A stretch of DNA of 64,000 bases from Kofleriaceae bacterium. Lineage in GTDB: Bacteria > Myxococcota_A > Polyangia > Haliangiales > Haliangiaceae. The stretch lies in contig JBKJLC010000202.1 of the NCBI GenBank assembly GCA_046597055.1, positions 21,121 through 85,120 of the forward strand, given 5' to 3'. The notes under the pieces were generated by a model. That model did no database searches. It was not told the DNA's origin and was given only the letters and a program-made list of their open reading frames with translations. This document shows, in pieces, positions 20,256 to 64,000 of the stretch (position 1 is its first letter; each line of letters begins with the position of its first letter). Position numbers and translations under genes: made by a program.

Positions 20256-22754
20256 ATGATCGAGCATAAACCCTTCGTCCCGCCCGAGGCGAACGTCCGT
20301 GAGCTGACCCCCATGGCACTCATCGTGGGTGCCTTCCTCGGTCTGGTCTTCGCGCTGTCGTCGGTCTACCTCGGCCTCAAGGTCGGGCTCACCGTGTCGG
20401 CCTCGATCCCGGTCGCGGTGCTGTCGATCACCCTGTTCCGCTGGTTCAAGCTGCGCGGCACGATCCTCGAGAACAACATCGCGCAGACCACCGGCTCGGC
20501 CGGCGAGTCGATCGCGGCCGGCGTCGCGTTCACCCTGCCGTCGCTGCTGCTGATGGGCTTCGACCTCGAGCTGGTCCGCGTGCTCATGGTCGCGCTGCTC
20601 GGCGGCCTGATCGGCGTGCTCATGATGATCCCGCTCCGCCACGGCCTGATCGTGAAGGAGCACGGCAAGCTCGCCTACCCGGAGGGCACCGCCTGCGCCG
20701 ACGTGCTGATCGTCGGCGAGAAGGGCGGCACCGAGGCCAAGATGGTGTTCCTCGGCCTGCTGACCGGCCTCGGCTACGCGTTCCTCAGCCTGATCCTCAA
20801 GCTCTGGAAAGAGGGCGCGACCCTGACGCTCGACGTCGGCGGTCGGCTCAAGGCGGCCACGCTCGGGGTCGAGGTGTCGCCGCCGATGCTCGGCGTCGGC
20901 TACATCATCGGCCCCAAGGTCGCCGCCAACATGCTGGGCGGCGGCCTGCTCGCGTTCGTCGTGCTCATCCCGATGATCGTCTTCTTCGGCGACCCCGAGA
21001 CCGTCGGCAAGATGTCGCCGGGCGCGATCCGCAACGAGTTCATCCTCTACATCGGCGCCGGCGCGGTCGCCGCCGGTGGCTTCATCGCGCTGGGCCGCTC
21101 GATCCCGACCATCGCGCAGGCGTTCAAGCGGGGCCTCGGCGACCTGCGCACCAGCGATGCCCCGCGCGCCGCGGTCATCCGCACCGAACGCGACCTGCCG
21201 ATGACGGTGGTGATCGGCGGCGCGGTCGCGATCGCCCTGACCATCTGGATCGCGCCGATCCTCGAGATCAACCTGATGACCGCGCTGCTGGTGGTGCTGT
21301 TCGGCTTCTTCTTCGTCACCGTGTCGAGCCGCATCACCGGCGAGATCGGCTCGTCGTCGAACCCGATCTCGGGCATGACCATCGCGACCCTGCTCCTGAC
21401 CTGCGGCCTGTTCGTGCTGCTGGGCTGGACCGGCGTCGAGTACAAGGCGATGGCGCTCACCACCGCCGCCCTGGTCTGCGTCGCCGCCTCGAACGGCGGC
21501 ACCATCTCGCAGGACCTCAAGACCGGGTTCCTGGTCGGCGCCACGCCCCGGGCGCAGCAGATCTCGATCCTGGTCGGCGTGGTGTCGAGCGCCATCCTCA
21601 TCGGCTTCACGCTGCTGATGCTCAACGACTCGCGCACGACGTACCCGGCGGTGAGCTACCCCGAGTTCACCGTGACCAAGATGAGCGACCAGACGCTCGA
21701 CGGCCCCGACGGCAAGAGCTACCGCGTGGTCTACCTGCGCGACGACATCGCGATCGTGCCCAAGGTCGAGGTCGCCAAGGGCCGCTACCTGGTGGACGCG
21801 ACCGGCGCGGTGCGGTTCACCCTCGGGCGCGACGACCAGCCGGTCAAGCGCGAGGTGCCGAACTACGTCGCCCCACCCGCCGGCGCCGACGCGGTCATGA
21901 TGGCCGGCCCCGACGGCGTCAGCTACCGCGTCGTCACGCTCGCCGCCTCGTTCAAGGATGCCGGCCGCCACGTGCCGCGCGGCAAGTACCTGGTCGACGC
22001 CAGCATGAAGCTCGCCTACCTGGTCGATCCCGGCGTCAGCGGCAGCTATCCGTACGAGCTCGAGAAGGCCACCGGCACGCTGCCGCCCGACGTCACCGTG
22101 AACGACGAGGACCAGCTGGTGCGCGGCACCACCGTGGTCGGCACCGACCGCGGCACCGAGCTCGGCATCGATCATCGATCGTACCGCCTGATCGAGCTGG
22201 ACGACGAGATCGGCGGCCTGCGCCCCGGCCGCTATCTGGTCGACGAGGCTGGCCAGGTCGCCTTCGTCGCGCGCGAGATCATCAAGTTCGATGCGCCCAA
22301 GGCCCAGCTGTTTCGCCTGATCATCGACGGCACCCTCGGCGGCAGCCTGCCGTGGGGGCTGGTCCTGATGGGCGTGCTGCTGGCGGTCATCCTCGAGCTG
22401 GTCGGGGTTTCGTCGCTGCCGTTCGCGGTCGGCCTGTACCTGCCGATCCACACCTCGGGCGGCATCTTCATCGGCGGCTTCGTGCGCTGGCTGGTCGACC
22501 GCAAGCGCCGCGGCGAGAGCGCGGCCGACGCCGAATTCTCGCCCGGCATGCTGATGGCCTCAGGCCTCATCGCGGGCGGCGCGATCACCGGCGTGCTCCA
22601 GTCGGTCATCTACGCGGCGAAGTGGAACCAGGCGATGGACCTCAGTGGCTTCCTGCCCGCGTCGCTGGCGGCCAACGAGACCTGGTGGCCGCTGACGCCG
22701 TTCCTGCTGATGGCGGCCGGCCTGTTCTACATCGCGACCCAGAAGCGGAAGTAG
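20256..22754 (+). CDS. OPT family oligopeptide transporter with large repeated loop insertion
   Basis: YLGLKVGLTVSASIP, ILENNIAQTTGSAGES, LAYPEGTACA, GSSSNPISGMTIAT, SQDLKTGFLVGATP, FAVGLYLP. Confidence 0.95.
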   Translation: MIEHKPFVPPEANVRELTPMALIVGAFLGLVFALSSVYLGLKVGLTVSASIPVAVLSITLFRWFKLRGTILENNIAQTTGSAGESIAAGVAFTLPSLLLMGFDLELVRVLMVALLGGLIGVLMMIPLRHGLIVKEHGKLAYPEGTACADVLIVGEKGGTEAKMVFLGLLTGLGYAFLSLILKLWKEGATLTLDVGGRLKAATLGVEVSPPMLGVGYIIGPKVAANMLGGGLLAFVVLIPMIVFFGDPETVGKMSPGAIRNEFILYIGAGAVAAGGFIALGRSIPTIAQAFKRGLGDLRTSDAPRAAVIRTERDLPMTVVIGGAVAIALTIWIAPILEINLMTALLVVLFGFFFVTVSSRITGEIGSSSNPISGMTIATLLLTCGLFVLLGWTGVEYKAMALTTAALVCVAASNGGTISQDLKTGFLVGATPRAQQISILVGVVSSAILIGFTLLMLNDSRTTYPAVSYPEFTVTKMSDQTLDGPDGKSYRVVYLRDDIAIVPKVEVAKGRYLVDATGAVRFTLGRDDQPVKREVPNYVAPPAGADAVMMAGPDGVSYRVVTLAASFKDAGRHVPRGKYLVDASMKLAYLVDPGVSGSYPYELEKATGTLPPDVTVNDEDQLVRGTTVVGTDRGTELGIDHRSYRLIELDDEIGGLRPGRYLVDEAGQVAFVAREIIKFDAPKAQLFRLIIDGTLGGSLPWGLVLMGVLLAVILELVGVSSLPFAVGLYLPIHTSGGIFIGGFVRWLVDRKRRGESAADAEFSPGMLMASGLIAGGAITGVLQSVIYAAKWNQAMDLSGFLPASLAANETWWPLTPFLLMAAGLFYIATQKRK

Positions 22755-36646: not shown

Positions 36647-37204
36647 ATGAGCCCACTGGCGGAGTCCGCGCACGCCCTGCGTCCGTTCGCGTGCGTGGTC
36701 GCCGCGGACCAGGCGGGCGGCATCGGCCGCGCCAACGATCTACCGTGGCCCAAGCTCAAGGCCGACCTGCGCCACTTCCGCGACCTCACGTCGATCGCGC
36801 CCGCCGGCCAGCGCAACGCGGTGATCATGGGGCGCAAGACCTGGGACTCGGTGCCGCCGAAGTACCGGCCGCTGCCCGACCGGCTCAACGTCGTGATCTC
36901 GCGCGGCCAGGTCGCGCGGCCCGACGGCGTCCTGCTCGCGGGCTCGCTCGACGACGCGCTGGCGCATGCGGCCGCGGTGCCCGACGTCGACCAGCTGTTC
37001 GTGGTCGGCGGCGGCGAGATCTACTGGCAGGCGTTCGCGCACGACCGCTGCCGCGACGTGTTCCTCACCCGGCTCGCCAGCACGTTCGACTGCGACACCT
37101 TCATCCCGCCGGTCGCCGAGCGCTTCGCGCTGGCCGAGACGCTCGGCAGCCACCAGGACGCCGGCGTCGCCTACACGATCGAGCGCTGGGCACGCTGTCG
37201 CTAG
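36647..37204 (+). CDS. folA: Dihydrofolate reductase
   Basis: [54 protein letters not shown]. Confidence 0.97.
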
Positions 37205-38001
37205 ACCGCGATCGGGAACTTGATGAACGGGTGGTGCTGGTAGCCGTCGAGGCGGATGTCGTCGAAGCCGAGCTCGAGCAGCGGCTTGTCGGCGAGGTGC
37301 AGGGTCGGCAGCGGGAACGGCTCGCGCTCGAGCTGCTGCTTCACGCCCTCGACGTGATTGAGATAGATGTGGGCGTCGCCGAGCGTGTGGACCAGGTGGC
37401 GCGGCCGCTTCCCGGTCTCCTGCGCGACCATCGCGAGCAGGAGCGCGTAGCTGGCGATGTTGAACGGCACGCCCAGGGCGAGATCGGCCGAGCGCTGGTA
37501 GAGCTGCACGTCGAGCCAGTCGCCGGCGACATAGAACTGGAACAGCGCGTGGCACGGCGGCAGCTTCATCTTCGGCACGTCGGCGACGTTCCACGCCGAC
37601 ACGATCAGGCGGCGCGAGGTCGGGTCGCGCCGGATCGACTCGATCACCTCGCGGATCTGATCGATGCCGGTGCCGGGCGGCGCGCCGGGGGCCGCGCCCC
37701 AGTTGCGCCACTGGAAGCCGTAGATCGGACCCAGCTCGCCGTCGGCATCCGCCCACGCGTCCCAGATCGGCGTGTGCTCGGTCAGCCCGTCGTTGATGTT
37801 GGTCGCGCCGCGCAGGAACCAGAGCAGCTCGCGCACGACCGCGGGGAACAGGACCTTCTTGGTCGTGACGATCGGGAACCCGGCCCGCAGATCGTAGCGA
37901 GCCTGAGCGCCGAACACCGACAGCGTGCCGGTGCCGGTGCGGTCGATCCGACGCTCGCCGTCGGCGAGCACCAGGCGCAGCAGGTCGAGGTAGGGCCGCA
38001 T
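37201..38001 (-). CDS. thyA: Thymidylate synthase
   Basis: [58 protein letters not shown]. Confidence 0.98.
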
Positions 38002-38042
38002 CGCGCCTCGTATACCACCGGCGCTGTGATAGGTCTCCCGCG

Positions 38043-38879
38043 ATGTTCCCGACCGCGGTCCGCTTCACCGAGCTGGTCGAACGCTACGACGCCTTTCTGT
38101 TCGATGCCTACGGCGTGCTCGTGGATGCCGGCGGCCCCTGCCCGGGCGCGGCCGCCGCGCTGGCCGCGGTGCGCGCCGCCGGCAAACCGCTGCTGGTGGT
38201 GAGCAACGACGCGTCGCGCCTGCCGGCCACCGCCGAGGCCCGGTTCGCCCGGGTCGGGCTGCCGATCGCGGCCGACGAGATCGTGCTGTCGAGCGGCCTG
38301 ATCGCCGCCGACGTGGCGGAGCACGGGCTCACCGGCGCGGTCGCGATGGTGCTCGGCACCCCCGACGCGCGCGCGGCCGCGACCGCCGCCGGCCTCGTGG
38401 TGGTGCGGCCCGACGACGCCGCCGCGATCGACCTGCTGCTGGTGTGCGATGACAGCGGCTTCGAGTTCCTCGCCGGCATGAACGCGGCGCTCACGGCGTG
38501 TGTACGCGCACTCGATGCCGGCCGCGCGCTCACGCTGGTGTGCCCCAACCCCGATCTGGTCTACCCGCGCGGCGGCGGCGCCCTCGGCTTCACCGCTGGC
38601 TCGATGGCGATGATCCTCGAGGCCGCGCTGGTCCGCCGCGACCCCGGCGCGCCGCGCTTCCGCTACCTCGGCAAGCCGCACCCGCCGATCTTCGCCGAGG
38701 CGCGTCGGCGCGTGCCCGGCGCGACCCGGCTGCTGATGGTGGGCGATCAGCTCGAGACCGACATCGCCGGCGCCCGCGCGGCCGGGATCGACGCCGCGCT
38801 GGTCACCGGCATCTCGCGCTGGCGCGTCGGCGCGACCGCGCCCGACCTGGCGCCGCACTGGCTGCTCGACTGGCTGTGA
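38043..38879 (+). CDS. HAD-superfamily class IIA hydrolase (NagD-like)
   Basis: [37 protein letters not shown]. Confidence 0.92.
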
Positions 38880-38942: not shown

Positions 38943-40757
38943 ATGGGGACGATGCCCTTCGACAGACGTACGTCCACCGGCACGGGTGACACGGGTGGCG
39001 CGCGCTTCGAGGGCGGCGCCGGCAAGCGCACGCTGACCGAGCGTCTCCAGCCCCGCCTGCGGGTCGGCGCCTCCTCCGACGTCCACGAGCAGGCCGCCGA
39101 CAGCGCGGCCGAGCGGGTGACCAGCGTGCTCCACGGTGGCGAGGCGGCACCGGCGGCGCCGCTGGCGATCGGCTCGGTCGGGGCCGGCGAGGCCCAGGGC
39201 AAGGACGCCGATGCGGGCGAGGCGCCGGCCAGCGTTGAAGCCGCGACCAGCGGCGGCGGCGGCAACCCGCTCGACCCGACCACCCAGAGCCGGATGGAGG
39301 GCGCCTTCGGCGGCCACGACTTCTCGAGCGTGCGCGTGCACACCGACGGTGGCGCCGCCGCGTCGGCGGCCGACATCGGCGCCAGCGCCTACGCGGTCGG
39401 GCAAGACCTCTTCTTCGGCGATGGCGCGTACCAGCCCGGCAGCGCCGCGGGTGATGGCCTCCTCGCGCACGAGCTGACTCACACCGTCCAGCAGGGCCAC
39501 GGCGGCGCCGCCCAGCGCCGGGTGGTGCAGCGCGGTGGCCCCGGCGATCCGCCGGCGGTGGCCCCGGCCGGCCCGACCGCCACGCCCGGCGAGGACCCGG
39601 TCGACAACGAAGGCAACCACTACCGCACGGTCGGCGGCAAGACCCACATCACCGCGGCGCCGGTGCAGGCGGTGCCCGGCCACAGCGGCAAGTTCGAGGC
39701 GCTGCCGGCCAACCCGCTCGCGACGTTCAACGCGCTCATGGCCCAGGTCGAGGCGGCCAAGGTCACGCAGCTCGCGACCGCCGACGGCTTCGCCGGCGGG
39801 CGGGTGCCGCCGGCCGACTACAAGTACTGGTTCGCCAAGGTCTACTACTACGTCACCGAGCACGAGCTCGCCGCGATCCGCGCCGGCACCTACCAGTACC
39901 CGATGATGAAGGCGCAGGAGGTGATCTGGTTCAACAACGCCTACATGGCCAATGTCCACCGCTGGGCGTCGGGCGCGCAGGCCGAGTGCGAGCCGCACTG
40001 GCGGCAGGCGTTCACCAACGCCGAGAGCCAGGCGTCGACCGAGGTCGACACGCTCACGCCGCTGATCGGCCAGGGCGTCGGCGGTGGCGTCGGGCTCGCC
40101 GGCGGCGCCGCCGCCGGGGCCCTGATCGGCACGTTCGTGTTCCCCGGGATCGGGACCGCGCTTGGCGCCGGGCTCGGCGCGCTCGGCGGTGCCCTGACCG
40201 GCATGATGGCGGGCGCGCCGGCGGCCAACTCGCTGTCGGAGGGTGCGCGCCGGGTGATGGCGGCGCTGCTGCCGTCGATGCAGGCGCACATCCGCTTCGA
40301 TCTCCCGCGCGCGATCGCAGGCTGCTTCCAGTCGTACTACGCGGGCCTGCCCAGCATCGGGCTCGGCGACTTCCACCCCGACTTCGACGCGATGGGCCCG
40401 GTGTTCGATCAGGCGCAGACCAGCCTCAATCCCGAGATCGCCGCCGCCACCGGCGTGCCGGCCTCGGTGCTGACCCAGGCCGCGACCCACGCCTTCCCGG
40501 CCTACTTCGACGTCGCCGCCGAGCGCCAGACCACGTGGACGAAGTCGGCCGAGCTGGTCGCCGCGCACACGGCGGGCGCGACCAACCAGGCGTCCGAAGA
40601 TCGGATGCGCGCGGTCACCGGCGCCGGCTCGCCGGTCTCAGGCGCGAGCGCCTACCAGGTTGACGGGCATGACATCTCCGGGTTCGACTGGGGCATCAAC
40701 CCCGGCACCGCCCCGCCGCAGACCATGCCCACGCCCCCCGCGGGTGGAGGTAACTGA
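38943..40757 (+). CDS. DUF4157 (eCIS core) protein with C-terminal DUF5995-like domain containing a glycine zipper
   Basis: RMEGAFGGHDFSSVRVHTD..AYAVGQDLFF..LLAHELTHTVQQ. C-terminal FAKVYYYVTE..WRQAF..MQAHIRFDLPRAI. Confidence 0.85.
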   Translation: MGTMPFDRRTSTGTGDTGGARFEGGAGKRTLTERLQPRLRVGASSDVHEQAADSAAERVTSVLHGGEAAPAAPLAIGSVGAGEAQGKDADAGEAPASVEAATSGGGGNPLDPTTQSRMEGAFGGHDFSSVRVHTDGGAAASAADIGASAYAVGQDLFFGDGAYQPGSAAGDGLLAHELTHTVQQGHGGAAQRRVVQRGGPGDPPAVAPAGPTATPGEDPVDNEGNHYRTVGGKTHITAAPVQAVPGHSGKFEALPANPLATFNALMAQVEAAKVTQLATADGFAGGRVPPADYKYWFAKVYYYVTEHELAAIRAGTYQYPMMKAQEVIWFNNAYMANVHRWASGAQAECEPHWRQAFTNAESQASTEVDTLTPLIGQGVGGGVGLAGGAAAGALIGTFVFPGIGTALGAGLGALGGALTGMMAGAPAANSLSEGARRVMAALLPSMQAHIRFDLPRAIAGCFQSYYAGLPSIGLGDFHPDFDAMGPVFDQAQTSLNPEIAAATGVPASVLTQAATHAFPAYFDVAAERQTTWTKSAELVAAHTAGATNQASEDRMRAVTGAGSPVSGASAYQVDGHDISGFDWGINPGTAPPQTMPTPPAGGGN

Positions 40758-41254
40758 TGAACCCGACCACCGAGCCCCCCGCCGCGATCAAGCAGTTCGT
40801 CCTCGCCGGCGGTCAGATGGACGTCGACACCATGTTCGGCCTGGTCGACTGGCTCATGACCCACGCGCCCGACTGGGCGCGCAGCCTCGACAGCCCGGCG
40901 CTGCCGGCCGACCGCGCCGAGGCCCTGGCCGACGCGGGCATCAAGGAGCTCGAGCACGTCACGCTGCCGATGGTGCGCAATCGCCTGACCGAGATGACGC
41001 TGGCGCTCGGGGCCGGCGGTCAGGTCCGGCCCGCCACCGACGACGAGCGCGCCAAGGTGCTGGCCGCGGTCCAGGTGCCGGCGGTCAGCCGCGCGTTCCC
41101 GACCCGGGTCACCAATCGCCTCGAGGTCTGGCGCGGCCGCGCCCAGCAGGCGTCGGGGCCGTGGTGCGCGACCGCCGACGGCAAGACGTTCTGGCTGGTG
41201 CTGAACCCCGACCAGGATCGCGTGATCCTCGTGAAGTCCGGGGCGGTCCGATGA
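40757..41254 (+). CDS. Hypothetical protein translationally coupled to the DUF4157 gene (candidate immunity/chaperone)
   Basis: TGATG stop/start overlap and GGAGG RBS. 165 aa, no signal peptide. Confidence 0.7.
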
Positions 41255-41273
41255 CACCCGGGGAGGAGCGCTC

Positions 41274-42851
41274 ATGAGCAACCGCGAAGGCCGATCGGAG
41301 CCCGGGTCCACCACCGGCGAGGCCGCGAGCAGCGGCGGCGGCGCGCCCGGCAAGCGAACCCTCACCCAGTCGGTCCAGCGCAAGGCCGGTGGCGCTCCGG
41401 CCGCCGCCGGTCCTGCCGGTGGCGAGGCCGCGAGTGGCGCGGCCGGGCCCGGCCCCGACGTGGCCGCGGCCAAGGCGGCCGCGATCGTCGAGCGCGCGAT
41501 GGCGCGCAAGCGCGCGCAGCAGGGCGGCGCCGATCCGGCGGCCGCCGCCGGCGAGGCCCCGGCCGGCGAGGGGGCCAGCGGCGACAGCGCCGCCTCGGGT
41601 GGGCCGGTCCAGATGGACGGGGACGGCGCGCGCGCGGACCCCGACACCATCCACGCCGCCGCGGCCGATGGCGTCGGCGGCGCCGCCGGTCGCCTGCCGT
41701 TCGCCGACGCGATCCAGCAGTCGTTCGGCGGCCACGACGTGTCGGGCGTACGCGCGCACGTGGGCGGCGCCGCCGCCGAGGCCTGCGCGACCATGGGCGC
41801 GTCGGCGTACGCGAGCGGCAGCGACGTCGCGTTCGCGTCGAGCCCCGATCTCCACACCGCGGCCCACGAGGCCGCCCACGTCGTGCAGCAGCGCGGCGGC
41901 GTCCACCTCTACGGCGGCGTCGGTGAGACCGGCGACGTCTACGAGCGCAACGCCGATGCAGTCGCCGACCGCGTGGTCGCCGGCGCCTCGGCCGACGACC
42001 TGCTCACGCCGTTCGCGGGCGGCGCCAGCACCCCGGCGGTGCAGCGCAGCGCGGTGCCCGCCGCCAGCGCGACCCCCATGGAAGGCCCCGGCGCCACCGG
42101 CGGCGGCGCGACCACGGCCGCGGCGGGCGGCACCGGCACCAGCCACTACGTCGTCGAGCTGAAGGCGTGGATCCCGCACGACAAGGTGGTCGACCCCGAG
42201 GAGCCGGCCCGCGCCAGCGACTGGCTCGACTCGATCAGCGGCGTCGTCGACAGCGTGCTCGACTCGATGCCGTTCTCGGCGGTCGGCCCGCGGCTCAAGT
42301 ACGACTTCCACTCGTACTACCGGGGCGACAACCACGCCGGCTACGACGGCGGGCACCGCGTGATCTCGAAGGCGGAGTTCGACTTCGACGGCACCACCGT
42401 CAGCAGCTTCAAGCACACCGGCAACGCCCACGCGAGCCACCGCGACTACGACTACCGGGCGTGGATCGAGTTCCTCTACGGCCTGGCGTCGATCGAGGTC
42501 ACCAGCGGCGCGGGCTCCGAGAGCGCCACTGCCGGCGGCAGCTGGTCGGGCGCGACCGCGGGCCCCAACAGCTTCGACCTCGGGTTCGCCAGCGCCAACC
42601 CGCTGGTGATGACGTGGGCGCCCGACATCGACTCCACCGGCCACGGCACCCTCGGCAGCGGCCTGACCTTCAGCTACAACACCGACCTGTTCCCGAGCCA
42701 CGGCGTCCGCGTCTACAAGAACGGCAGCGCGGTCGAGACGAAGGTGGTCAACGACGCATCCGGCGTCAACGGGCTGGGCCCGATCGGCGCTGCGCTGATC
42801 GGCCACCGGCTCACGTCTCAGACCAACGCTGGCTCGATCACGGTGCCGTGA
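41274..42851 (+). CDS. DUF4157 (eCIS core) protein with C-terminal DUF3238-like domain
   Basis: [41 protein letters not shown]-terminal KAWIP, YRGDN, SANPL..APDID, DLFPSH. Confidence 0.85.
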
Positions 42852-43302
42852 CCGACCAGTCGGGCGGCTCGCCGGCCGGCCCGCGCCCGACGTGAAAGCC
42901 CTCGAACCGGCGGGAGGTCCCGCTGGCGCCACCGGCCACGCCCGCGTGCCAGCAGCACACCACCGGGCTGGCGAAGCGCCGGGTGGCGGCGTCGGGGCCG
43001 GTGCCGCGGTCGCGCGAGGCGTCGACCAGCGGTGTCCGGTTTCCGGACGCATCGACCGCGAGGTAGCGCTGGTGGAGGATGCCGGCCTCGGCGCGGCTCG
43101 AGGTGGCCAGGTACCCGCTGGCCGGGATGCGGATCACGCGCTCGGCGCCGACCACCGGCAACGGTGGCGAGGACCGGACCTCGAGCTCGACGACGACCCA
43201 GCCCTCGAAGCCGGCCGGGAGCTCGTAGACCACCGGCGTGGTGTGGTCGCGGCGATCGCAGCCCGCGGTCGTCACCAGCGCCGCGAGCAGCGCCGCCTTC
43301 AT
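42838..43302 (-). CDS. Small lipoprotein (DUF6843-like)
   Basis: Lipobox [29 protein letters not shown]. Confidence 0.65.
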
Positions 43303-44006
43303 GCCCGGTCAGCCCCGGCCGGGAAGTGACGGTCGAGGAGCAGGTCCAGCTCGCCCGGGACCAGCGCGAACCAGCCGGTGACCTCGGCCGGCGAGAACCG
43401 CCGGGTCAGGCTGTCCTCGATCAGCGTGTTGAGGTCTTGCTCGACGTGGACCGCCCGCATCAGCGACGGATCGGGCCCGGGCGCGGTGCGGCTGCGGGTC
43501 CACGCGTTGACGACGTACTGGTCGCCGAGCGGATAACGATGGTGGAGCGCGATCTCGAACATCTGCGGCGGATCCATCGTCCAGCGCGGCTGGCAGTAGT
43601 GCGCAGCCAGGTACGCGCCCGGCGTGTCGTGCGCGGCCAGGCGCGTGATCACCGCGGCCAGGCGGGCCACCCGCTTGTGCGCGACCTGCATGAGCTCGAC
43701 CAGCAGCTCGGCCGCGGCCGGATAGAACGCGTGCGGCAGCGGGGTGGCGGCAGCCGCATCGGCCAGCACCCAGTACACATCGGCGCGGGTCGCGGTCACC
43801 TCGGCGCGCCACGCCCGCGCCTGGTCGGACAGGATGAACCGCGGCGCACCGCCGTCGCCGGGCGCGACCACCGGGTCGGCATCGAACCGCGCCAGCCAGC
43901 CCGGCAGCTGCCGCATGACGCGGCCGAAGCCGGCGTCGTGATCGGGCGTGAACACCGTCGCCTGGCACACCGTGACGGTGAACGCGCCGGCGGCGAGGGC
44001 GGTCAT
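43299..44006 (-). CDS. Hypothetical protein (weak resemblance to TIGR04255-like fold)
   Basis: Coding-like ORF with ATGA overlap to the next gene. Motifs RVARLAAV and VEQDLNT. Confidence 0.6.
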   Translation of the reverse strand: MTALAAGAFTVTVCQATVFTPDHDAGFGRVMRQLPGWLARFDADPVVAPGDGGAPRFILSDQARAWRAEVTATRADVYWVLADAAAATPLPHAFYPAAAELLVELMQVAHKRVARLAAVITRLAAHDTPGAYLAAHYCQPRWTMDPPQMFEIALHHRYPLGDQYVVNAWTRSRTAPGPDPSLMRAVHVEQDLNTLIEDSLTRRFSPAEVTGWFALVPGELDLLLDRHFPAGADRA

Positions 44007-47419: not shown

Positions 47420-50014
47420 TTGCGCGGGGTGCGCCCCACCGCGCTTGCCGCTGGCCTGCTGTTCGCCTCGGGAGCAACCGGGCTCGCGTACGAGGTCGCG
47501 TGGGCGCGCGAGCTGGGCCCAGTGCTTGGCCACACCGCCGACGCCGCCGCGGTGGTGGTCGCCGCCTACTTCGTCGGCCTCGCGGTCGGCGGCCTCGCCG
47601 GCGCGCGCCTCGCCCGCCGCCTGCGCCGACCGCTCCTCGGCTACGCCATCGCCGAGACGATCGCGGCCCTGTGGGCGCTCGCGCTGGGCCCCATCCTCGA
47701 TCTCGCCGGCGGCACCGCCCTGGCTCGCGCGCTCCACGACGCGGCCCCGCTGACCGCCGGCCTGGCCCGCGCCGGCGTCGCCTTGCTCGCGCTCCTGCCC
47801 GCGACCGTCGCGCTCGGCGTGACGATCCCGCTGGTGGCCGCCCACCTGCGCACCGTCCGTGGCGCCGCGTGGGCCTACGCAGCCAACCTCGCCGGCGCGG
47901 TGGTCGGCACCGCCCTCGCGACCTTCGTCCTCCTCGGCGCCGTCGGCGTCACCGCCACCGGCCGCCTCGCCGCCGTGCTGGCCCTCGCCGTCGCCGCGCT
48001 CGCCGCCCTCGCCAGCCGCAGAACCAACCCGGCAGGCGCCCACGCGCCTCGCCCTTCGACTCCGCCCCTCGGGCTTCGCTCAGGGACACCGGAGAGAGAC
48101 GCGTCGTCCGACTTTCGGACATCTTCCCCGTCACCTTTTCCCTCGCCCTCGCCCTCGCCCTCGCCCTCGCCCTTTCCCTCTCCCTTTCCCTCTCCCTTTC
48201 CCTCTCCCTTTCCCTCTCCCTCTCCCTCTCCTTCTCCTTCTCCCTCTCCCTTTCCTTCCCTCGCTTCCCCGACAGCCGCCCCCGGCCTCGCCCTGCTCCT
48301 CGCCATCGTCTCCGGCCTCGGCAGCGCCGCGACCCAGGTCCTCTTCACGCGCGCCCTCGCCCTCACGTTCCACAACAGCGCCTACACCTTCGGCGCGGTC
48401 ATCACGGCGTTCCTGCTCGCGCTCGCCGCCGGCGCCGCCCTCGCCGCTCGGGTCGATCGCAGTCCCGCCGCTACCCTGCGCGCCGCCGGCCGCGCTGCGC
48501 TCGCCGCCGCGATCCTGCTGCCCGGCGGCGTCCTCGTCCTGTGGGCCTCCACCCAGGGGCTCGGCTACTTCACGGCCTCCGGCGCGCTGCCCGGCTACGT
48601 CGTCGCCGCCGTCGGCCTCGCGGTCCTCGTCGTGGGGCCGCCCGTCACCGCCATGGCCTTCCTCCTCCCCCTCGCCTGGCGGCTCGGCGACGCCACCCCG
48701 GCCCGCGACGGCATCGGCGGCCCCGCCCCCGCCGTGCCGGTCGGCGCCACCATCGGCCGGCTCACCGCCGCCAACAACCTCGCCGGCGCCGCCGCCTCGC
48801 TCGCCACCGCGCTCCTGATCGCCCCGTCCCTCGGCCTCTGGAACAGCGTCGCCGCGGTCACCGCGCTCTACGCGATCACCGGCGCGGTCCTCGCGTTCCG
48901 CGCCGGCGAGCGCCGCGCCCTGATCGCGGTCGCCGTGCTCCTCGCCGCCGCCACCGCCGCGATCGCCCGCCCGATGCCACGCCTCCCCGCCGGCACCCAC
49001 CTGCTCGCCCGCTGGGAGACCGCGTACGGCTGGCTGGACGTCGTCGAGGACGCCCGCGGCGAGCGTCGCCTGCGCCAGAACCTCCACTACGGCTTCGCCT
49101 CGAGCGACAACGACCTGCGCCAGCGCCGCATGGGCCAGCTGCCGCTGCTCCTGCATCCCGAGCCCCGCCGCGCGCTGTTCCTCGGGCTCGCCACCGGCAT
49201 AACCGCCGGCGGCGCGCTCGCCGATCCCGCCCTCGAGCGCCTCGACGTCGTCGAGCTGATCCCCGAGGTCCGCGCCGCCGCCCGCCACTTCACCGCGTGG
49301 AACGGCGGCGTCCTCGACGATCCGCGCGCGCATCGCCACCACGGCGACGCGCGCTTCTGGCTGCGCGGCGCGGACGCCCGGTGGGACGTGATCGTCACCG
49401 ACCTGCAGCTGCCGTGGGCGAGCCAGACCGGCTACCTCTACGCGCTCGAGCACTACCGCGAGGTCGCGCGTCACCTCGCGCCCGGCGGCGTCCACGTCCA
49501 GTGGCTCGCGCTGTGGCAGGTCAGCCAGGCCGACCTCGAGCTCATCGCCGACACCACCCGCGCGGTGTTCCCGACCGTCGCGCTCTGGCGCGGCGACAGC
49601 TCGCGGCGCTGGGGCCTGATCGCCGTGGTCGCGTCGACCGCACCGATCACGCTCGACGCCGCGGTGCTCGCGCCGCGCATGGCTCGGCTGCGCCCGGCGC
49701 CCCGCCATCCCGATCCGGTGATCGCGTCACCACGCCGGATGGTCGAGCTCTACATCGGCGACTGGCCGGCGCGCGCGCGCGCGCCGCTCAATCACGACGA
49801 CACCCTGCGCCTCGAGCTCGATGCGCCCAAGAGCGATCGCCAGCGCACCGCGCTGACCGGCGAGCGGCTGGTCGGCTTCTACCGCACCGTGCTCGCACCG
49901 CTGACGCGCGCGGCCGTGCAGTTCACGCCGGCGGCCGGAGATCCCCCGTGGGATCCCGATGGTGGCGTGCGCATGCAGATGGGTGCCGCCGGCGAAGACG
50001 GCACCCCACCCTGA
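47420..50014 (+). CDS. Fused MFS-like membrane domain / spermidine synthase-like methyltransferase
   Basis: SGATGLAYEVAWAREL, YAANLAGA, LFLGLATGITA, VVELIPEV, DARFWL, DVIV, LAPGG..QW. Confidence 0.9.
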   Translation: MRGVRPTALAAGLLFASGATGLAYEVAWARELGPVLGHTADAAAVVVAAYFVGLAVGGLAGARLARRLRRPLLGYAIAETIAALWALALGPILDLAGGTALARALHDAAPLTAGLARAGVALLALLPATVALGVTIPLVAAHLRTVRGAAWAYAANLAGAVVGTALATFVLLGAVGVTATGRLAAVLALAVAALAALASRRTNPAGAHAPRPSTPPLGLRSGTPERDASSDFRTSSPSPFPSPSPSPSPSPFPSPFPSPFPSPFPSPSPSPSPSPSPFPSLASPTAAPGLALLLAIVSGLGSAATQVLFTRALALTFHNSAYTFGAVITAFLLALAAGAALAARVDRSPAATLRAAGRAALAAAILLPGGVLVLWASTQGLGYFTASGALPGYVVAAVGLAVLVVGPPVTAMAFLLPLAWRLGDATPARDGIGGPAPAVPVGATIGRLTAANNLAGAAASLATALLIAPSLGLWNSVAAVTALYAITGAVLAFRAGERRALIAVAVLLAAATAAIARPMPRLPAGTHLLARWETAYGWLDVVEDARGERRLRQNLHYGFASSDNDLRQRRMGQLPLLLHPEPRRALFLGLATGITAGGALADPALERLDVVELIPEVRAAARHFTAWNGGVLDDPRAHRHHGDARFWLRGADARWDVIVTDLQLPWASQTGYLYALEHYREVARHLAPGGVHVQWLALWQVSQADLELIADTTRAVFPTVALWRGDSSRRWGLIAVVASTAPITLDAAVLAPRMARLRPAPRHPDPVIASPRRMVELYIGDWPARARAPLNHDDTLRLELDAPKSDRQRTALTGERLVGFYRTVLAPLTRAAVQFTPAAGDPPWDPDGGVRMQMGAAGEDGTPP
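48052..48085. repeat. REP-like element CCCTTCGACTCCG...CTTCGCTCAGGG inside a CDS
   Basis: Matches the CCCTTCGAC...GCTCAGGG REP-like palindrome pattern and lies in a linker with atypical codons. Confidence 0.55.
48123..48269 (+). repeat. Hexamer microsatellite (CCCTCN/CCCTTT) encoding (SP/FP)n
   Basis: Pyrimidine-rich tandem hexamers translating to SPSPFPSPSPSPSPSPFPSPFP... Confidence 0.9.
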
Positions 50015-57109: not shown

Positions 57110-57838
57110 TCACCCCGTCGTCGGCCAGCCCGCCGCGGCCCCCCGCGCCGCGATCAGGGCCGTGCTGGCTGTCCGCATCTCGGACAGCCTGGGATGACCG
57201 GTGAAGTGCAGCCGGGCCAGGAGGTCGGCCAGCTCGCCGGGCCCCCCCGTCGGCAGCCGCACCGGCGTCGGCACCCGCGCCAGCGTGACCGCGAAGCCAG
57301 CGGCCTCGAGCACGGTGGCCGCGCGGGCGGCCAGCCAGCCGTGGTGCGCCGACGGCTGACCGGCGATCGCGGCCTCGCACAGGTAGACCTCGACCAGGTC
57401 GTTGCCGGGCGCGGCCTGCACGATCACCACCCGGTCACGCGCGATCCGCGCGAGCTCGGCGACCGCCCGGGTCGGCTCGTCGGTGTACTGCAGCACCCAG
57501 GTCGCGATCGCGGCGTCGGCGCCGCGATCGGGCACCGGCACGTCCCCGGCGCGCCCGGCGACCACGGTGAGCCCGGCCGGCAGGTGCGCCCGCTGCTCGG
57601 CGCTTGGCTCGACGATCGTGACCGGCGCGACCCGCGCCGCGAGCGCCTGGGTGATGAGCCCGGTGCCGCCGCCGACGTCGACGATCGAGCCAACCCCGGC
57701 GAGCGCGACGATCAGCGCCTCGATCTCGTCGGCCGAGTCGAGCAGCGCGGCCAGCGCGCGCCACGCGGTCGGGTCGAGGCGCTCGGGTCCCCAGAACCTC
57801 GCCGGAACCGGCCGGTCCGGATCGCACAGCGGGTGCAT
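57110..57838 (-). CDS. Class I SAM-dependent methyltransferase
   Basis: VDVGGGTG, VEPS, ADAAIATWVLQY..ELARIAR. Confidence 0.85.
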   Translation of the reverse strand: MHPLCDPDRPVPARFWGPERLDPTAWRALAALLDSADEIEALIVALAGVGSIVDVGGGTGLITQALAARVAPVTIVEPSAEQRAHLPAGLTVVAGRAGDVPVPDRGADAAIATWVLQYTDEPTRAVAELARIARDRVVIVQAAPGNDLVEVYLCEAAIAGQPSAHHGWLAARAATVLEAAGFAVTLARVPTPVRLPTGGPGELADLLARLHFTGHPRLSEMRTASTALIAARGAAAGWPTTG

Positions 57839-57944
57839 CAGCCAGCGTGCCAGGCTCAGGCCGACAGGATCGCACACCGCGCGACCGCAGCCAGCGCCGG
57901 CCTCGGTTCCCACCCCGTGGTACGGTGCCGCCGAGTCCGACCCG

Positions 57945-59033
57945 ATGGTTGACGAAGAGCGCCGCGGCCACACCCGCGAACAGACCGACGAGAGCCTGCG
58001 CGCCGAACGTGAACGCGTCGACGGCCTGGTCGAGAAGAAGCGCGAGGACATCGAGCACGAGGCCGACCAGGTCGTGCAGCTCGCCCGCGAGCGCGCCGAC
58101 AAGGTCGTCCAGGCGGCTCGTGACGAGGTCGACCACGAGCGCTCCTCGCGGCGCCAGACCACCGCGTCGGAGACCAGCTCCGAGCGCGAGCGCAGCCAGG
58201 CCGACGACGTCCTCCAGCTCGAGCGCGCCAGCGCCGACCAGGTGCTCGAGCGCGAGCGCGCCGAGCGCCGGCGGGTCCTCGCCGACTTCCTCGCGGTCGA
58301 GCGCGAGGCCACCGACGACGATCTGATCGACGAGCGCATCCACGCCGACACCGAGATCGCGGCCCGCGACGCGTTCCTCGCCACCGTCAGCCACGACCTG
58401 CGGTCGCTGCTCCACGGGCTGTCGCTCAACGACGCGCTCCTGGTCGAGCACGCACCCGAGGGGCCCGACGGCGACAAGGCACGCCGCCACGCCGCCACCA
58501 GCAAGCGCCTGGTCGCGCGCATGAACCGGCTGATCAACGACCTCCTCGATGTCGCCAGCATCGAGGCCGGCAAGCTCGGCGTCACCCTCGAGCAGGTCGA
58601 GCTCGCCGACCTCCTGCGCGACACGCTCAACGCCTTCGAGTCGATCGCGGCCGCCAAGCAGATCACGATCGACGTCAGCTGCGCGGAGGCGCTGCGCCAC
58701 GCCTAGCTCGACGGCGGTCGCATCCTGCAGGTGCTGGCCAACCTGGTCAGCAACGCGATCAAGTTCACCCCGGTCGCCGGCCGGATCTCGATCCAGATCG
58801 GCTCCGAGGGCAACGACCTCACGTTCATGGTGAAGGACACCGGGATCGGCATCCCGCCCGACGCCCTGGAGACCGTGTTCGAGCGCTTCCGTCAGCTCAG
58901 CAAGGATCGCCGCGGCCTGGGCCTCGGTCTCCACATCTCGAAGTCCATCGTCGAGGCCCACGGCGGCCGGATGTGGGCCGAGAGCACGCTCGGCGTCGGC
59001 ACCACGATCCACTTCGCCCTGCCGCGGCGCTGA
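57945..59033 (+). pseudogene. Cytoplasmic sensor histidine kinase interrupted by an in-frame amber codon (58704-58706)
   Basis: H-box FLATVSHDLR lies before the TAG. N/G/F boxes (NLVSNAIKFT, DTGIGI, FERF, GLGLGLHI) lie after it in the same frame. Confidence 0.88.
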
Positions 59034-59234: not shown

Positions 59235-60542
59235 ATGACCTCCAGACCCCCGCCTGACCTCGGGCAGCCGCGCTCCGCCGAGGTGAGCACGGGAGGATCC
59301 GCGTCGGTGGGCGTTCGTTCGCGCACCGCCGAGCGCTACCGAGGCTCCGGGCGGGACGGCGACGGCGCGGCGACCGGCTCGGTACCGAAGCCGGCCGCGT
59401 CGTCCGCGCCGATGACGCCGGCATACACCAGTCCCGCCTACCTCGGAGAAGACCCGTTCGGGGTGCACCTGCTTGGCGACGCCGTCCAGCTGACGGGGCC
59501 GGCCGGTGGGGCCGCGGTCCACGCAGCCGCGGAGCGCGGCGTCGAGTCCGCCGGCGGCTCACTGCCCCATCGCGACGCGATCCAGGCGTCGTTCGGCGAG
59601 CTGGTCAACCGGATGCGCAGCTCGGGCGCGATCACGAGTGGCTCCCGCGTCCGTGGCGCTGCGCTGGGTCGGCAAGAACGCCGGGGGCGCAGTCGATCTT
59701 GCGGAGATGCTCGGCAAGCTCGTCCTCGAGCTCGTCGAGCACGGCCTCGATGCGCTCCTCGAGCTCGGCAAGAAGGCCGGCGAAGCCTTCGAGAAGCTGC
59801 CCGCCGTGCTCAAGTCGCTCGAGAAGTGGTTCGTCGATGGCTGGACCCGTGAGGACCCACAGGACCGCGGTGAGTTCCAGGGCGAGGTGATCGGCTATCA
59901 AGGTCCTGCGGGCCCTCGACCAGGCGGCGGACCCGTTCTTCTACGCCAGCAAGCTGGGCAAGTCGCTCAAGGTCGCCCGCCAGATCACCGACAAGGTGCG
60001 CGAAGGCCGCAAGGTCGTGGGCAAGGCCGACGACGTGGCGGGCGGCACGGACGATCGCGCGCGGACGATGACCCGCGAGGCGGGCCGGATCCCGAGCCGA
60101 CCCGACCGACGCGACGCCGGTCGGCGAGCCGAAGATGGAGACCCACACGAGATCGAAGGACGACAACCCCCGCGACCGGCGCGACTTTCACAACGACATC
60201 CGAACCATGTCTCCAGCCGCTCAACAGCACATCCGCCACATCGAAAATCGGGGTTGGGTCCACGTGTCCGAGATCGCGCCCGAGGATCTCGTCGATATGT
60301 CGAGGTGGTTCGGAAAAGAACTTGGGGTCGTCCAGACGCCGTACGGAAAGCTACGGCTCATCCTGGGCACCGAGGATCAACTCATTGAATCGCAGATCTT
60401 GGCGGGCGAGATCTTCGTCGTGCACACCCACCCCGTCATGCGTACTCTGAAATCCCACTTCAAGGTCGACGTCCCCAATGCTGGCGACCGTGTCGAGGCG
60501 GTCATCGACTGGGGGGGCCAGATCGCATATTTCAGCAAGTCT
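59235..60542 (+). pseudogene. Degraded DUF4157-type polymorphic effector with C-terminal JAB-like domain
   Basis: VHAAAERGV..SLPHRDAIQASFG (start of DUF4157, then deleted), frameshifted helical linker (GEFQGEVIGY), tip with KELG..HTHP....SH..D. Confidence 0.7.
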
Positions 60543-60975
60543 GTAAGCGCTGCACGGACCGCACAGAGAAAGGCGCGAGCGGACCGTTGATGCTGCGGGC
60601 ATGCGAAGGCACTACACGCACTACACGCACTACACGACTGACCAGCGGGCGCAATTGATCGACCTGGTCCGGGGCGGGACGGCGGTCCCGGAGGCTGCGG
60701 CTCGGCTCGGGTGCAACCGGCCACCGCCTACACGTGGACCAAGGCGACGAGGGCGTCGCCGTCAGGGCGCGGCCGAGAGCGGCGGCGGCCACGTGGGGTG
60801 CCGGCAGCGCCGCCGGGTGGCACCCTGTCGCGCGGCTGGTCCCGGCCGAGGGCCGCGAGCCGACGATCATTGTTCGCGCCGGGGGCGCGACGGTCGAGGT
60901 GCGCCCCGGCTTCGACGCCGAGTTGCTGCACGCGGTGGTCGCCGCGCTGCGCGGAGGACGGGCGTGATCGGGCAC
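60543..60975 (+). mobile_element. IS66-family remnant (left TIR, frameshifted tnpA, start of tnpB only)
   Basis: Begins GTAAGCG. HTH YTTDQRAQLIDLV..AAARLG and C-terminal VEVRPGFDAELLHAVVAALR, followed by an overlapping GTGATC. No tnpC. Confidence 0.75.
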
Positions 60976-61137
60976 AGAACCCGGCCCGAGCGTCGTAGCC
61001 CCCTCGGCCGCGCGCGTCCATCTCGCGGGGCGCGGGGCGCGCCGCCGGCCCCGCGATCGTCGTGTCTCTCAGCGCGTAGGCCCCACTGTCTTGCAACATC
61101 GGAAGAAACCGCCGCTGTCGTGCGTTGCAAGGGCCCA

Positions 61138-63659: not shown

Positions 63660-64000
63660 TCAGCGCTCGCGGGTGTCGGCCTCGATGACGCGGGCGACGA
63701 CGTCGCGCTCGACCAGCTTGCGCTTCTTCTTGGCGGTCTCGCGGAGGGCGGCGGCGGCGAGGCGGTCGAGATCGCGCATGGCGCCGGCGGTGGCCTCGTG
63801 CAGGAGCGCGGCGGCGTCGGTCGCGAACAACTCGCGGTCGCAGCCGGCGTGGCGGAGGCGGAGCCGGAGGTACTCGGCGGTGTCGCCGGGCACGAGGGGC
63901 TCGATCTCGAGGCGATGGTGGAGGCGCGAGTACAGCGAGCGGTTGCGACGCAGGGCGAGCCGGTCGCGAAGTTCGGGCAGGCCGACGAGCACGACCGAGA
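63660..64000 (-). CDS. C-terminus of an ExeA-like AAA ATPase (transposition helper), continues beyond the window
   Basis: LVGLPEL..L..RSLYSRL..L..TAEYLRLRL..AG..LF..A..LLHEATAG..R.LDRLA. Confidence 0.85.
   Translation of the reverse strand, partial: SVVLVGLPELRDRLALRRNRSLYSRLHHRLEIEPLVPGDTAEYLRLRLRHAGCDRELFATDAAALLHEATAGAMRDLDRLAAAALRETAKKKRKLVERDVVARVIEADTRER

Follow-up and report, generated by a model that had tools for sequence, protein, structure and literature searches.

Two abutting modules of likely eCIS toxin cargo and candidate immunity genes in a Kofleriaceae bacterium

How are proteins with a DUF4157 (eCIS_core) domain delivered, and what do they act on, when their genes lie far from any extracellular contractile injection system (eCIS)? 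The question is raised by a stretch of 64,000 nucleotides from a Kofleriaceae bacterium (positions 21,121 to 85,120 of contig JBKJLC010000202.1), here called the window, in which two tandem DUF4157 genes, genes 1 and 3, flank a short gene of their own strand. An initial annotation, made from the letters alone, had read these genes as one cluster with swapped C-termini, belonging to a dispersed and modular arsenal that is delivered in trans by a contractile injection system (CIS) or by an unknown route. The source assembly (G000, 8.4 Mb, 94% complete, the window being on its contig C135) was analysed together with 138 genomes of the family and 400 genomes of the phylum. That genes 1 and 3 encode eCIS cargo is highly probable, and with a probability of about 0.6 the region consists of two abutting modules, each with a likely eCIS toxin cargo and its own likely immunity gene, as judged from sequence comparison and structure models. 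The features of the region are as follows.

38943..40757, + strand: cargo gene 1, predicted-disordered N-terminus, eCIS_core (DUF4157) and DUF5995 tip (Pfam, homologues, model)
39021..39038, + strand: GKRTLT motif of gene 1, candidate loading signal (motif analysis)
39267..39503, + strand: eCIS_core domain (PF13699) of gene 1 with HExxH (Pfam)
39660..40757, + strand: DUF5995 tip of gene 1, predicted all-helical, with invariant Q/Y/W and H-x-R-x-D-x-x-R (Pfam, alignment, model)
40086..40226, + strand: optional hydrophobic Gly-zipper insert inside DUF5995 (predicted local distance difference test score, pLDDT, of the model <50; alignment)
40757..41254, + strand: partner of 165 amino acids from an unnamed family, coupled in translation to gene 1 and a candidate for immunity against the DUF5995 tip (profile and synteny)
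41274..42851, + strand: cargo gene 3, predicted-disordered N-terminus, eCIS_core (41712-41900) and DUF3238/BAS0735-fold tip (42141-42851) (Pfam, homologues, model)
41349..41366, + strand: GKRTLT motif of gene 3, candidate loading signal (motif analysis)
42838..43302, - strand: DUF6843 protein with a lipoprotein-type signal (by eye) and a candidate for immunity against the DUF3238 tip (Pfam and synteny)
43299..44006, - strand: open reading frame (ORF) of 235 amino acids, no family match, coupled (ATGA) to the DUF6843 gene and co-distributed with gene 3 (sequence and genome scans)

The cargo genes and their tips

Both DUF4157 genes are real, as had been annotated: PF13699 is matched above the Pfam cut-off and with an HExxH in each, at residues 109-187 of gene 1 (101 bits, AHELTH) and at residues 147-209 of gene 3 (53.7 bits, AHEAAH). 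Going by the starts of its homologues, gene 1 probably begins at the ATG at 38952. The two proteins can be aligned over the N-terminus and the core only (33% identity, E 9e-18), and the disorder of their N-termini is read from a composition of 36-50% glycine plus alanine and 8-15% hydrophobic residues. Contigs from two studies bridge the gene junctions, one of the same study covering 39795-41870 and one of another study 40878-41356, and the junctions are therefore not assembly artefacts; no RNA data set was listed as holding the region. The G+C content of the region resembles that of the flanks, and promoter and terminator scans of the region gave chance level only.

The tip of gene 1 matches DUF5995 (PF19458) with 60.6 bits at a cut-off of 27, and its model is all-helical with a pLDDT of 84.9. 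Within the length range that was searched it has 53 homologues, about half of which carry an eCIS_core and some an OmpA-like end; DUF5995 cargo is met fused to OmpA-like and LysM domains. Invariant in 52 of 52 aligned rows are Q37, Y62, W114, H210, R212, D214, R217, D241 and R289 (numbered from 39660), whereas the Gly-zipper insert is long in only 9 of the 52 homologues and has 17-33 residues in the other 43. As polar residues are invariant in all rows and the zipper is optional, the tip is suggested to be an enzyme, and a Gly-zipper pore as the core mechanism was rejected because the hydrophobic insert is optional. The annotated combination of DUF5995 and a Gly zipper is thus present, the zipper being an optional insert within DUF5995. 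No structure clearly similar to the DUF5995 model came up when folds were compared (PDB by Foldseek, best E 1.2; VIA, best Z 5.5; viral structures, best E 0.71), an outcome that speaks for neither a novel fold nor any function; sequence searches of the PDB with the single DUF5995 and DUF3238 tips gave no match, and a profile of the gene 1 tip matched only OmpA domains of its homologues there.

DUF5995 occurs in other arrangements as well. EWEE-type DUF5995 cargo, which has an extra C-terminal domain, is followed at several loci (L057, L073, L050/L051, L137:3919-4995) by a leucine-rich-repeat gene, and the two are a further candidate toxin-immunity pair; one gp19 tube gene has an EWEE-type DUF5995 gene (L083:1018-1569) immediately upstream. 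A protein of genome G012 (L132:27-1703) joins the N-terminal cargo motif described below to DUF5995 and an OmpA-like end without an eCIS_core match. Fusions of SRPBCC and DUF5995 without cargo features are found at L043:1360-2526 (contig C157 of G000) and at L041-L047, and they may hint at a lipid or small-molecule substrate for DUF5995.

The tip of gene 3 has no Pfam match to DUF3238 (PF11579) at E 0.1, and 8 of 50 homologues match that family weakly (best 9e-5). Its model (pLDDT 93.9) superimposes on PDB 3c5p, the protein BAS0735, with a Z of 19.2 and a root-mean-square deviation of 2.4 over 179 aligned residues, and a profile search supports the same relation (E 0.0023). We take BAS0735 to be a DUF3238 member, which fits the weak PF11579 matches. 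A DUF3238-like tip, as first proposed, is therefore right with respect to fold and homologues, not with respect to a Pfam match of the protein itself. This tip has 64 matches, in which it is joined to eCIS_core, to peptidoglycan-binding domains or to proteins that look secreted, and no relative was found in the plasmids and viral contigs that were searched. The motifs GDxH and TDxFPSH are invariant, which suggests an active site. With at least 53 and 64 members, respectively, both tips belong to families, and the swapped C-termini are not unique to this locus.

The partner genes

The start of the 165-residue ORF overlaps the stop of gene 1 (TGATG) behind a GGAGG, which bears out the translational coupling noted initially. 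The protein has no Pfam or NCBIfam match and its family as a whole no Pfam family; its profile found nothing among PDB sequences, and an Atlas search returned no usable match for it or for the gene 3 tip. The family has 95 profile matches, 1-2 of them clearly spurious. With a profile built blind to gene neighbours and scanned over 31 metagenome loci plus the genome loci, duplicates being merged, the partner was found directly 3' of the DUF5995 tip in 10 of 12 testable loci of one supported clade (99/98) and at none of 18 other DUF5995 loci (0/9 EWEE-type, 0/7 SRPBCC-fused, 0/2 stand-alone). The middle gene thus does co-occur with the tip. The 12 loci are counted after setting aside duplicates (L059, L061, L064, L068, L070, L128, L130), two full tips followed by <300 bp of sequence (L075, L127), seven fragments at contig ends (L072, L076, L077, L080-L082, L085) and three further fragments, L074 with a weak partner match (17.5 bits) and L078 and L084 with no partner; the EWEE count leaves aside the duplicates L051 and L131, and L036-L040 gave no tip-profile score. 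By eye, the genes flanking the tip-partner pairs resemble unrelated housekeeping genes.

The partner family also occurs without the tip. Homologues stand as orphans in G038 and G041, that of G038 being the one clear homologue in the 400 phylum genomes (four weak matches of 20-27 bits were set aside), and in longer proteins the family is fused to several unnamed domains (P0154, P0162, P0176, P0190, P0196, P0211), the fused members resembling poly-immunity proteins. Orphan copies and domain fusions are common among immunity genes. The partner at locus L058 has a lipoprotein-like form by eye. In G538, a genome of another genus, gene 1 and its partner form a block of 92.8% identity that ends at the start of gene 3 and is followed by transposase-like DNA; among the codons that differ between the two copies, synonymous changes predominate, with 65 of 111 for gene 1 and 14 of 22 for the partner. 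Upstream of this module, at 36647-38879 (+), lie dihydrofolate reductase-like, thymidylate synthase-like (by eye) and HAD hydrolase genes, and the last 143 bases of the HAD gene accompany the module in G538.

The 165-residue protein was rejected as the partner of gene 3, whose own partners sit outside the cluster as first drawn, at 42838-44006 on the opposite strand. Of the 138 family genomes, 3 have the DUF3238 tip and the same 3 have DUF6843, the two being adjacent in every one and DUF6843 being in tandem duplicate in G490; the 235-residue ORF occurs in these three and in G484, there near a contig end. Beyond the family, 5 of the 400 phylum genomes have the DUF3238 tip. One of them, G424, belongs to another family and has DUF6843 co-oriented and directly downstream of the tip; another, G038, has a homologue of the 235-residue ORF. 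Since G538 holds the second module on a contig other than that of the first, and with 77% instead of 92.8% identity, a single three-gene unit was rejected; what had been taken for one cluster is really two independent modules.

Delivery and cargo tagging

No eCIS structural gene stands in the window; the rest of the assembly has one full eCIS locus.

C74:152-23286 of G000 (L001, L002): eCIS locus without eCIS_core cargo or ATPase, with a low-complexity ORF of 1,700 amino acids (profile searches)

The locus encodes Pvc16_N, two sheaths, two gp19 tubes, CIS_tube, a GPD hub, a spike, gp25, baseplate J and Tail_P2_I, with a weak match for CIS13, and it nearly fills its contig, the flanks being beyond view. 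Extra gp19 tube genes are found on C286 and C252. The 30 PF13699 matches of G000 make up 26 reading frames on 22 contigs, and none of the 30 is on C74, the window cargo being on C135. Most of the 22 other cargo frames have tips without a Pfam name; the named ones include LysM, OmpA, SH3/DUF6861 and an MgtE_N-like tip. Four similar AAA-type ORFs (frames of 700-1,100 amino acids, one checked with Pfam) lie away from the eCIS locus on C79, C208, C230 and C233 and are candidates for cargo loaders. The VipB and Hcp proteins of a type VI secretion system (T6SS) had no match in the 94% complete assembly, and delivery by such a system was rejected on this ground. In the family, tallied with the unpublished genomes G478 and G479, tube genes are present in 132 of 138 genomes and eCIS_core likewise in 132 of 138, and 16 of 16 genomes of the same genus have eCIS_core matches, from 21 to at least 37 each. 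Dispersal of the cargo is therefore the rule in this group. The proposed arsenal of dispersed, modular cargo that is delivered in trans is thus supported by the eCIS on C74 and the cargo on other contigs, and the route need not be called unknown.

It has been reported that a disordered N-terminus is required for eCIS loading, that it is system-specific, and that it is maybe read by an AAA ATPase (10.64898/2026.05.27.728243, accessible text). Here, a short motif, P/A-G-K-R-T-L-T, marks the cargo N-termini, and the loose pattern G-K-R/T-T/S-x-T is found in the N-terminus of 20 of 26 eCIS_core frames. When a matrix built from 18 frames was run over 4,033 coding-like frames, 20 scored >=18 and all others <=13.8; of these 20, 17 had been used for training, one is a held-out cargo, and the remaining two (C41, C208) have no eCIS_core match. 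In a leave-one-out analysis, 13 of 18 stayed above background. Among the cargo loci of relatives, 12 of 27 score >=14, with 9 from the 11 loci of the same genus and 3 from the 16 of other genera, vs none of 540 shuffles. The GKRTLT motif may from this be inferred to be a loading signal. Fourteen homologues of the two tips have an N-terminus of the LQRxAGNxAV type and no DUF4157 pattern; the tips thus appear to differ in their N-terminal tag from host to host, which agrees with the reported system-specificity. Motif frames without an eCIS_core match lie at L139:1937-6280 (+), with an HVHP-bearing tip, and at L140:4296-5978 (-), with a weak Peptidase_Mx match.

Mechanism, alternatives and known systems

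In the mechanism that is proposed, GKRTLT would be the mark by which an AAA ATPase of the eCIS recognises the disordered N-terminus and threads the cargo into the C74 tube, as for AlgoCIS, while DUF4157 would be accessory; neighbouring bacteria would then receive the tips by injection from the particle. The fusions to OmpA, LysM and peptidoglycan-binding domains, like the lipoprotein-type partners, hint at the envelope as the target of the tips: the DUF5995 tip would likely be an enzyme at the membrane or envelope that is neutralised by the 165-residue protein, and the DUF3238 tip would likely act in the periplasm or on the cell wall and be neutralised by the DUF6843 lipoprotein, and the partners would shield the producing cells together with their kin. 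Each module would spread as a cassette on its own, which would make the arsenals of related strains differ. More tentatively, and with the odds somewhat against so broad a scheme, one cargo-free eCIS would be a launcher shared by dozens of toxin-immunity cassettes that are scattered and exchanged horizontally in Kofleriaceae-type myxobacteria, tagged by P/A-G-K-R-T-L-T for the eCIS ATPase, with DUF5995 and DUF3238 as new antibacterial enzymes and the unnamed family and DUF6843 as immunity proteins.

A number of observations weigh against cargo-immunity modules served by the C74 eCIS. The partner is absent from 2 of the 12 testable DUF5995 loci (G012, G544) and from the tip fragments L078 and L084. 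In the three family genomes, DUF6843 is convergent with gene 3 and not co-transcribed with it, these genomes may share one ancestral cassette of the second module, and at 3 of the 5 DUF3238 loci outside the family there is neither DUF6843 nor the 235-residue ORF. DUF5995 is found in SRPBCC fusions and also beside an oxidoreductase in a polyketide cluster, where it is named in the accessible part of PMC11672594, which means that the family is not one of toxins alone, and many eCIS toxins are described without an immunity gene in the accessible parts of PMC3482391 and PMC8213781. As to the tag, 6 of 26 eCIS_core frames have no motif match, and the training pattern of the 18-frame matrix was chosen after the sequences were seen. 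With 7.6% contamination of G000, C74 could in principle be foreign, which is disfavoured because tube genes are found family-wide.

The partners might be chaperones, adaptors or co-effectors of eCIS cargo and not antidotes, which we consider unlikely. Coupling and co-occurrence suit a chaperone equally well, a Streptomyces CIS effector is bound by a genetically coupled partner according to the accessible text of PMC13277306, and the partner is missing from two DUF5995 loci with no apparent ill effect; a loading chaperone, however, would be expected to follow the N-terminus and not the tip, and the orphan copies, the fusions to unrelated domains, the lipoprotein-like L058 and the tandem DUF6843 in G490 suit immunity better. 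It is quite improbable that the eCIS is loaded with this cargo for use in development or against kin cells or eukaryotic prey, DUF5995 then being an enzyme for lipids or small molecules: the dedicated downstream partners, the OmpA, LysM and peptidoglycan-binding fusions and the patchiness of the horizontal spread (3 to 6 of 138 genomes) all suggest conflict between bacteria. Such a use would agree with the SRPBCC fusions and the biosynthetic cluster, with the developmental function ascribed to CISs of Streptomyces in the sources consulted in part, and with the statement in the accessible text of PMC8894135 that purified AlgoCIS killed no tested bacteria.

It is very improbable that the proteins are exported otherwise than through the C74 eCIS and that DUF4157 releases them by autoproteolysis. 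Such export would account for an eCIS locus without a linked cargo gene, DUF4157 autoproteolysis has been proposed (PMC3482391, in its accessible part), and by eye the DUF3238 tip is also found on proteins with secretion-type N-termini; the N-termini of the window cargo, in contrast, are polar with few hydrophobic residues, there is no T6SS match, and the EWEE-type DUF5995 gene of L083 sits directly before a tube gene.

The architecture of DUF4157 cargo is already published, Haliangium included (PMC3482391): PVC-metallopeptidase (DUF4157/eCIS_core) polymorphic toxins were described by Zhang et al. 2012 (PMC3482391) and Geller et al. 2021 (PMC8213781), with Haliangium examples in the parts accessible. 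Like them, the window cargo has a constant N-terminal DUF4157 with HExxH and variable tips, with several such proteins per genome and OmpA-type tips, but the window tips have candidate immunity genes, which many PVC toxins lack, and no cargo is on the eCIS contig. By the accessible text of PMC11297309, 88% of known eCIS-associated toxins (EATs) are encoded in or near the eCIS operon, whereas the window cargo is not; the ten supplements that were searched hold no match for DUF5995, DUF3238 or DUF6843. Cgo1 and Cgo2 of AlgoCIS, which reside in the lumen of the tube (PMC8894135), are likewise two tandem genes with a disordered N-terminus, a central DUF4157 and differing C-termini, but lie within the eCIS cluster, and the accessible text mentions no immunity gene; moreover, loading sequences are reported there not to be conserved between systems (10.64898/2026.05.27.728243, accessible text), whereas the motif found here recurs across a bacterial family. 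BAS0735 (3c5p) shares the fold of the gene 3 tip, but is a stand-alone protein of 197 amino acids and of unknown function with 10-13% identity, whereas here the fold is a cargo tip with a linked lipoprotein gene. The eCIS toxin-immunity pairs (EAT5 etc., PMC8213781) and the PT-PIM pairs (10.1101/2021.10.19.465003) also consist of a toxin gene and a conserved adjacent partner that was predicted by synteny; going by the descriptions accessible, which alone set them apart from the window pairs, they belong to other families.

In the literature that was searched, to which subscription papers, the additional file of 2012 and the preprint supplements did not belong, DUF5995 or DUF3238 tips and their partners were not found as PVC-type toxins. 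DUF5995 was named in one paper only, that on the polyketide cluster, and no paper named DUF3238, BAS0735 or PF11579, or DUF6843; no listed title or abstract matched eCIS motifs or eCIS in myxobacteria. What appears to be new is the link of the 165-residue family to one DUF5995 clade, the two separable modules, and the N-terminal motif with its two extra cargo candidates. The two candidate toxin-immunity pairs give testable roles to three DUFs and two unnamed families, and the findings point to eCIS as a major, mostly unstudied weapon of abundant predatory soil bacteria. The motif bears on cargo selection by an eCIS, itself an open question, and is relevant to engineered protein delivery; if it is true, it would be a sequence-defined eCIS loading motif by which cargo could be listed with or without DUF4157.

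A third copy of the cargo, annotated as broken and with a JAB-like tip, lies further downstream in the window.

59235..60590, + strand: broken cargo remnant with cargo-type N-terminus, truncated core, fragments in several frames and HTHP in the last ORF (sequence comparison)

It is indeed a truncated remnant: the stretch 59235-59600 shares homology with the N-termini of cargo proteins and with the first part of their core (E 1e-18 vs a cargo frame of C105) and is cut before the HExxH, which it therefore lacks. The JAB-like tip was not confirmed, as the last ORF (60135-60590) has the HTHP but no JAB match in Pfam or NCBIfam, and the spacing downstream of HTHP is not canonical for JAMM as that motif is generally given; within the genome, the best match of this ORF (E 0.012) is not a clear paralogue. 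Beside the remnant are insertion-sequence-like fragments (60590-61000 and 63660-64000), with similar DNA at the start of C165 and C201. A histidine-kinase-like gene at 57402-59033 (+) is, by eye, broken by an in-frame TAG at about 58704-58706, and at 47875-48375 a simple repeat with strong GC and AT skew encodes Pro-Ser/Pro-Phe runs in a membrane-protein ORF of 864 amino acids.

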